Shown: positions 1,929 through 2,750 of the stretch, in pieces
Position numbering within the stretch: position 1 is the stretch's first letter
How the letters are laid out: each line of letters starts with the position of its first letter
Source: a virus
Taxonomy: Duplodnaviria; Heunggongvirae; Uroviricota; Caudoviricetes
IMG/VR virus record: IMGVR_UViG_2526164691_000020
DNA: 9,492 nt
Reading direction: 5' to 3' (one strand)
Translations under genes and position numbers: made by a program
Notes under the pieces: model-generated
The model's input: only the letters and a program-made list of their open reading frames with translations
Database searches by the model: none
Told to the model about the DNA's origin: nothing

Positions 1929-2750
1929 TCAGTTGTTGTTCTGCCCATGCTTCTTCAATATCAAACTGCACCACCAGCGTATCGTAAAAACGTTTAACTG
2001 TTTTTTCCATGTATCAAGAGATATGGCATCGGTTACATTACATATGGCATTAAATGCCTCCGTTGAAGGTAATCTTTCATAGCCACGACCACCACAACGC
2101 TGGCAGTCTCTGATAACAGGCATACCACGTTTTACCGACTCTTCACGATGAATGGCAACACCGCGCCCACGACAATCTTTACAGGCGGTGGAAACCTCCC
2201 CCTTCCCTCCACACTCCGGACAGGCAACTTTTACCACCTCCCTGACTTTTTTCCATTCCTCCCAGTAAGACGGATACACGCCTTTTGTGCACTTTGCCCA
2301 CACTGGCGGCTTACCATCCGGATACTGGATCTTGTTTGTAAAAACCTCGCTTTCAATAAATTTTTTTCCGTGACAACAGGGGCACTGTTTTTTGCTCGCC
2401 GCGCTACGGGCATAATCTTCAAACGCATACGAAGCCATAATACGCATCACTGCCGGTTTTATTTCTGCCGGGAGTTTTCTTAACGCCGCCACGCGATCAC
2501 ACCGACTGAGTGCATATTCTGTCAGCAATTCTGTTGCCCGCTCTCTGTCATTCATACTAATGCCCATTTTCCCAAGGAACGCAGAAAACCCCATCTCAGC
2601 CCAATTCTGTGTCATGCCCTGCGCGGCCATCACATCAGTGATACTCAGCGTATCTTTCGACGTTGAGGCCGATGCATCAGTCAGGCCGAGGGATTTTGGG
2701 GATAGTATTTCGGTAAATCTTCCAGTTTCATTTTTTGACCTGCCCTTCAA
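1929..2750 (-). CDS. quuQ: Q-like late antiterminator (QuuQ/YdfT-like) with four DnaJ-type CxxCxGxG zinc-finger repeats; start codon uncertain
   Basis: 273-codon ORF from the track (TTG start at 2750 overlapping rusA; alternative ATGs at 2630 and 2615). Motifs CPCCHGKK, CPECGGKG, CKDCRGRG, CQRCGGRG read directly. Position immediately upstream of the PR'-like promoter supports a Q role. Confidence 0.65.
   Translation of the reverse strand: MKGRSKNETGRFTEILSPKSLGLTDASASTSKDTLSITDVMAAQGMTQNWAEMGFSAFLGKMGISMNDRERATELLTEYALSRCDRVAALRKLPAEIKPAVMRIMASYAFEDYARSAASKKQCPCCHGKKFIESEVFTNKIQYPDGKPPVWAKCTKGVYPSYWEEWKKVREVVKVACPECGGKGEVSTACKDCRGRGVAIHREESVKRGMPVIRDCQRCGGRGYERLPSTEAFNAICNVTDAISLDTWKKQLNVFTIRWWCSLILKKHGQNNN

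Follow-up and report, generated by a model that had tools for sequence, protein, structure and literature searches.

A long-arm member of the lambda Q antiterminator family, frameshifted in the present copy, at the Qin prophage locus of Escherichia coli

Q of phage lambda is the sole member of the lambda Q family of antitermination proteins (Pfam PF03589) with solved structures (PDB 4MO1 and 7UBJ-7UBN), and the textbook model of these proteins rests on it. In Qlambda, a body of four helices that includes a helix-turn-helix is joined to an 'arm' (residues 114-152), which is a zinc ribbon with two CxxCxGxG knuckles, CRDCHGTG and CGRCKGVG (PMC9388147). The arm touches positions 11-13 of the Q-binding element, and residues 110-112, 117 and 122-126 touch the beta' zinc-binding domain (PMC9388147). 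The N-terminal segment forms the nozzle in lambda. The roles of the -35-like element and of the pause element downstream of the lambda late promoter have also been described (PMC9388147).

Several relatives carry four cysteine pairs instead of two. They include YdfT/QuuQ of E. coli K-12 (b1559, Qin prophage), in which the motifs are spaced 35/13/26, gp17 of phi80 (54/13/25) and gp23 of Salmonella phage ST104 (38/13/26). The Q proteins of Stx2c phages also have four pairs. The quuQ gene of the Stx2a phage Stx2_EH1910 (L089, 2471-3292) is identical in 272 of 273 residues to the intact allele of the gene described here and is followed by the same promoter module. The lambda-type Q antiterminator is already known and annotated.

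An earlier note on the window, by which we mean the whole 9,492-nucleotide stretch of DNA analysed here, described a Q-like antiterminator with four DnaJ-type zinc-finger repeats. The explanation that we hold with high confidence is that the gene encodes the late-gene antiterminator Q (PF03589) of a lambdoid prophage at the Qin locus of E. coli, and that its four CxxCxGxG motifs are structural zinc knuckles and do not form a chaperone module. The protein represents the long-arm form, which is common in the lambda Q family. It is neither a distinct class of Q nor a protein with another function, the two possibilities that the note had raised; its DnaJ-like signal lies mainly in the part common to lambda Q.

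Relation to Qlambda and the inserted arm

The gene, its four motifs and the two regions that contain them are listed below. The intact allele used as reference is WP_000762860.1 (L002; 273 residues), found for example in strain F2_407_2_2.

1929-2750, minus strand: open reading frame of the first, mechanical reading, with a TTG start and its last 21 residues out of frame
1912-2731, minus strand: Q antiterminator gene (lambda Q family, QuuQ type), a pseudogene here, delimited by PF03589, phmmer, PGAP and alignment to the intact allele
2190-2393, minus strand: insertion relative to lambda Q, 66-68 residues (about 114-181 of the intact protein), containing motif 1, a hairpin and motif 2
2361-2384, minus strand: motif 1, CPCCHGKK, in the insertion, ending in K and not in G
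2199-2222, minus strand: motif 2, CPECGGKG, in the insertion
2082-2183, minus strand: counterpart of the lambda zinc-ribbon arm, containing motif 3, a strand-helix-strand and motif 4
2160-2183, minus strand: motif 3, CKDCRGRG, with a counterpart in the lambda arm
2082-2105, minus strand: motif 4, CQRCGGRG, with a counterpart in the lambda arm

The profile searches that had been suggested place the protein firmly among the Q antiterminators. The open reading frame of the window matches PF03589 with 141.9 bits (E 7e-42; cutoff 26.7) and the intact allele with 168 bits, and the PHROGs label is anti-termination protein Q-like. A phmmer search of the PDB finds Qlambda (7ubm/7ubn, 4mo1 and 7ubj; best E 2e-39) in two blocks, in which residues 1-113 and 182-273 correspond to residues 1-113 and 116-207 of lambda. 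The first block of the intact allele aligns with lambda without a gap (E 2e-21), and the conserved part includes the segment that forms the nozzle in lambda. Lambda G39, L202 and T206 correspond to G39, L268 and T272 here. In the MAFFT alignment the identity to lambda Q is 40% over all 207 lambda residues, and the only gap in lambda Q, of 66 residues, follows RSAAT. Structure prediction gives the same answer. The AF2 model of the intact protein has a pLDDT of 79.6, and its best PDB match by Foldseek is 7ubn_Q, from the NusA-containing loading complex (E 6.7e-14, target TM 0.75, probability 1.00), while the match to DnaJA2 has an E no better than about 1. The four-helix body with a helix-turn-helix and the zinc-ribbon arm are recognized consistently in the model, the Foldseek match and the alignment.

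All four motifs reported in the earlier note are encoded by the frame at 1929-2750. Shuffling the protein 200,000 times never produced three or more motifs of the form C..C.G.[GK], and none of the eight cysteines varies among 48 homologues, the most distant of which are 56% identical. We conclude that the motifs are real and that selection acts on them. Motifs 3 and 4 align with C118/C121 and C144/C147 of lambda and are separated, cysteine to cysteine, by 26 residues, as are C118 and C144. The strand-helix-strand predicted between them by AF2 resembles the lambda arm. This segment alone gives a PF03589 match and also most of the DnaJ-like signal (E 5e-6), and lambda Q itself has a sub-threshold match to DnaJ_CXXCXGXG (E 9e-5). 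Since the lambda arm consists of two CxxCxGxG knuckles (PMC9388147), the lambda fold contains precisely this 'DnaJ-type' motif, contrary to the opinion that such a zinc centre is not what this fold would suggest.

The difference from lambda Q is the insertion, which falls between positions equivalent to lambda T113 and C118 and adds two cysteine pairs and a long beta-hairpin. The AF2 model contains two strands of 12 residues each in it, 125-136 and 159-170. The tip of the hairpin is the most variable part of the protein, in both length and sequence, among the homologues compared; YdfT, phi80 gp17, ST104 gp23 and the EH1910 QuuQ all differ in this hairpin. The inserted module alone has no significant match in Pfam, the best being Anti-TRAP at E 0.0014, below the cutoff, and it matches DnaJ_CXXCXGXG only at E 0.15. 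We propose that the insertion is a second zinc-stapled arm, in which motifs 1 and 2 clamp the base of the hairpin.

The zinc sites of the protein are most likely sequential, formed by motifs 1 and 2 and by motifs 3 and 4, and not nested as in DnaJ, where motif 1 pairs with 4 and motif 2 with 3. The clearest indication comes from a Q gene of a Pectobacterium polonicum prophage (L049, 1501-2313), the product of which is identical to lambda Q in 167 of 207 residues (81%). It retains the CRDC...CGRC pairs and has a 64-residue insertion of motif 1, hairpin and motif 2 exactly between lambda T113 and C118, so that this protein and lambda Q are a natural insertion/deletion pair. As the retained pairs bind one zinc in lambda, the inserted pair must form a site of its own. 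Among representatives at 50% identity the distance from motif 1 to motif 2 ranges from 14 to 63, whereas those from 2 to 3 (about 13) and from 3 to 4 (25-26) are constant, in line with a hairpin that is stapled at the base and free to vary in length. The two predicted strands have no pairing partner other than each other, and this also supports sequential sites.

The family is a small one: a search of 1.84 billion proteins yields 296 representatives at E <= 1e-3. Of the 34 sequence-cluster representatives (50% identity) with a complete arm, 26 have four cysteine pairs and eight have the two of the lambda type; motif 3 is often CxC among family members. Qlambda, on which the structural understanding is based, is therefore the short-arm minority form. 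The novelty of the present gene as such is slight: about 2,480 E. coli genomes contain a close copy of the locus, thousands of genome annotations already call the protein an antitermination protein, and the pairing of PF03589 with PF00684 has already been precomputed for relatives.

The late promoter and a possible role of the second arm

A promoter-terminator module adjoins the gene, as the earlier note had stated. It begins directly after the Q stop codon and was recognized by alignment to lambda and to related loci.

1879-1906, minus strand: late promoter PR', by alignment with lambda PR'
1906-1901, minus strand: PR' -35 element, TTGATT
1900-1885, minus strand: 16-nt spacer TTTCCCGAATCTGTGG, candidate Q-binding element
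1887-1879, minus strand: extended -10 element, TGG-TAAGTT
1879-1874, minus strand: -35-like element TTGCCC, one base before the pause element
1872-1867, minus strand: sigma-dependent pause element AACGAT, in the register of lambda TTGACT-C-AACGAT
1803-1830, minus strand: intrinsic terminator (tR'), a 7-bp GC-rich stem followed by a T-run

The order of these elements is that of lambda, in which the late promoter, the -35-like element, AACGAT and the terminator also follow the gene directly. GGTAAGTTTGCCCTAACGATGGG and lambda GGTAAATTTGACTCAACGATGGG align in the same register, and the annotation of phi80 shows this layout too. The -10 element, AACGATGGG and a terminator recur in 60+ related loci, while the spacer shifts with the clade of Q, as it does for YdfT, phi80 gp17, ST104 gp23 and the EH1910 QuuQ. 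Such clade dependence is the pattern expected of a Q-binding element. The spacer of the window, the presumed binding site, is unlike that of lambda. A scan for sigma70 promoters detected none here, since only three of the six positions of TAAGTT match.

The transcript from PR' to tR' would be about 67 nt long; the terminated transcript of lambda is 194 nt long. Rfam has no family at 1805-1872. The identification of the short PR' RNA with StxS was considered and rejected, as StxS is tied to a clade of 144-residue Q proteins (PMC7547250). In many loci of Enterobacter, Kluyvera and Klebsiella (L008-L043) an inverted repeat, AAATAGCTCAC-N(8-12)-GTGAGCTATTT, abuts the late-promoter -35 element, 30-60 nt past the Q stop codon. 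It is absent from the window and from the E. coli and E. albertii relatives, and could be a terminator of the Q transcript or a protein site.

By homology with Qlambda, the intact protein would bind the candidate element in the spacer of the late promoter and join RNA polymerase paused by sigma70 at AACGAT. The N-terminal segment of about 45 residues (1-44 in lambda) would then refold with NusA into a nozzle at the RNA-exit channel, and the polymerase would read through the terminator at 1830-1803 into the late genes. Motifs 3 and 4 would form the same zinc ribbon as the arm of lambda Q, which in lambda is in contact with both the DNA site and the beta' zinc-binding domain. The inserted hairpin, its base clamped by motifs 1 and 2, would be a second arm beside the surface that contacts the polymerase.

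The second arm may contact RNA polymerase, NusA or upstream DNA and thereby tune loading or the strength of antitermination. We regard this suggestion, to which the position of the insertion leads, as tentative: in the lambda loading complex, residues on both sides of that position are in contact with the beta' zinc-binding domain. Phage Stx2_EH1910 has a nearly identical, intact quuQ about 2 kb upstream of stx2A, so the function of the arm could bear on toxin expression. A literature search for a four-motif arm or a link to DnaJ in Q proteins found none; two papers mention the diversity of Q (PMC3491183 and PMC6266700) and make no reference to zinc.

A different role for the inserted arm would be in recognition of the DNA site, such that it reads additional bases of the Q-binding element and a long-arm Q needs a different or longer site. 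The contact of the lambda arm with positions 11-13 of the site (PMC9388147) and the variation of the promoter spacers by Q clade speak for this role, which we nevertheless consider unlikely. The Pectobacterium Q carries the insertion, and yet the 260 nt downstream of its gene keep a lambda-like late-promoter spacer, TTGAATAACATTGGG; the second arm therefore needs no changed core site. The long-arm loci do not all share a conserved element upstream of the -35; the inverted repeat, present in many loci, is missing from the window. Within the protein, nothing varies more than the tip of the hairpin.

State of the gene in the window

Alignment to the intact allele places the true start of the gene at the ATG at 2731-2729, which overlaps the stop codon of rusA as ATGA, and shows that the intact frame ends with the TAG at 1914-1912. 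The reading frame between them is broken in the window by two frameshifts relative to WP_000762860.1, and in this the copy differs from lambda Q and also from YdfT, phi80 gp17, ST104 gp23 and the EH1910 quuQ, the genes of which are intact.

2702-2704, minus strand: 5' frameshift, codon 10 lacking one C (at about 2703), TAC TCC to TA- TCC
2001-2006, minus strand: 3' frameshift, a run of six A in place of seven in the intact allele
2728-3101, minus strand: rusA, upstream, its stop codon overlapping the Q start and with a frameshift of its own in the window at about 2961

The open reading frame at 1929-2750 does exist as it was first described, and its limits are artefactual. Because of the two frameshifts, the TTG start at 2750 and the terminal 21 residues do not belong to the protein: the first 10 codons of the window copy are out of frame, and the wrong-frame C-terminal residues begin at residue 245 of the intact protein. 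The choice between the TTG and internal ATG codons, which had seemed ambiguous, is accordingly a product of the one-base deletion. The 3' frameshift follows K244, at the start of the last helix in the AF2 model. By homology to lambda Q this would be the recognition helix of the helix-turn-helix. The copy in the window is most likely dead, judging from its sequence, since one frameshift removes the natural N-terminus and the other the DNA-recognition helix.

With relBE, hokD, ydfV and flxA present, the window is identified as the Qin-prophage locus of E. coli. The only complete genome with a full-length match to it is DEC9B, at 99.8% identity. Of the 20 differences between the two, 15 are one-base indels; those in the window affect the Q gene, rusA, ydfU (about 3501) and relB (5579 and 5589). 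Several genes being hit in this way, the window is an error-rich or decayed copy, and the indel pattern is less suggestive of natural divergence than of assembly error or deliberate noise.

These indels, which break rusA, ydfU and relB as well as Q, are also the main argument that both frameshifts are sequencing or assembly errors and that the organism itself carries an intact, functional gene. The 5' deletion is missing from DEC9B as well as from the intact alleles, and given the prevalence of one-base indels it may indeed be a sequencing error. For the gene as a whole we find this account improbable. The 3' A6 frameshift is common to two assemblies, the window and the independently listed DEC9B genome, in which PGAP marks the gene as a pseudogene ('antitermination protein, frameshifted'). 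The late-promoter -10 is TAAGTT in both, as opposed to TAAATT in the loci with intact alleles (L002, L039 and EH1910) and in lambda. The prophage is a remnant interrupted by IS elements, and the gene downstream of Q is broken as well.

That downstream gene is a TerB-family pseudogene with an internal stop (1311-1674, minus strand). Together with a truncated ISEsa1 (IS1202-like) transposase (6907-7959, minus strand) and the start of an IS2 (8798-9127, plus strand), it indicates a decaying prophage remnant, in agreement with a dead Q gene. Three small RNAs were found in the window by Rfam, all above the gathering score: the AgvB anti-GcvB sRNA (888-949, plus strand; 96.5 bits), STnc100 (950-1139, minus strand; 131 bits) and the sok antitoxin RNA (8373-8544, minus strand; 99 bits).

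Resemblance to DnaJ and the naming of relatives

The CxxCxGxG knuckle is shared with DnaJ/Hsp40 (PF00684) and with anti-TRAP, to which the protein has weak similarity in profile and perhaps in fold. As in DnaJ, there are four copies with eight cysteines, which implies two zinc ions. The motifs do not follow the DnaJ spacing, as had been claimed, being 54/13/26 apart here and 17/22/14 apart in E. coli DnaJ. The match to DnaJ_CXXCXGXG (30.7 bits, E 4e-7) covers motifs 2-4 only and is below the cutoff of 32.7. Neither a J domain, a G/F region nor the DnaJ C-terminal domains are found by Pfam or NCBIfam, and the score against the DnaJ equivalog is 26.5 (cutoff 377). In place of the J and substrate-binding domains of DnaJ, the motifs here are part of an arm of a transcription factor that binds DNA and polymerase.

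That the four motifs, for all their number, the E value of the profile match and the resemblance of motifs 2 and 3 to anti-TRAP, form a true DnaJ-type cysteine-rich domain with nested zinc and a V-shaped hairpin, and so mark a separate class of Q or a chaperone-like function, is very improbable given the sub-threshold score, the spacing, the missing domains, the similar match of the one-zinc lambda Q, the gain or loss of motifs 1 and 2 as a unit with 3 and 4 kept in the Pectobacterium/lambda pair, and the homology to Qlambda over the whole length.

The CxxCxGxG match does lead to misnaming. A member of the Q family in Serratia quinivorans (P0026) is named 'chaperone protein DnaJ' in NCBI, probably on account of it. 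Lambda Q itself also appears in contigs assigned to unrelated taxa, from Pseudomonas, Shewanella, Bacillota and Collinsella MAGs (L071-L084), three of the contigs measuring about 48.4-48.5 kb. These occurrences are most likely due to contamination of the assemblies with lambda DNA.
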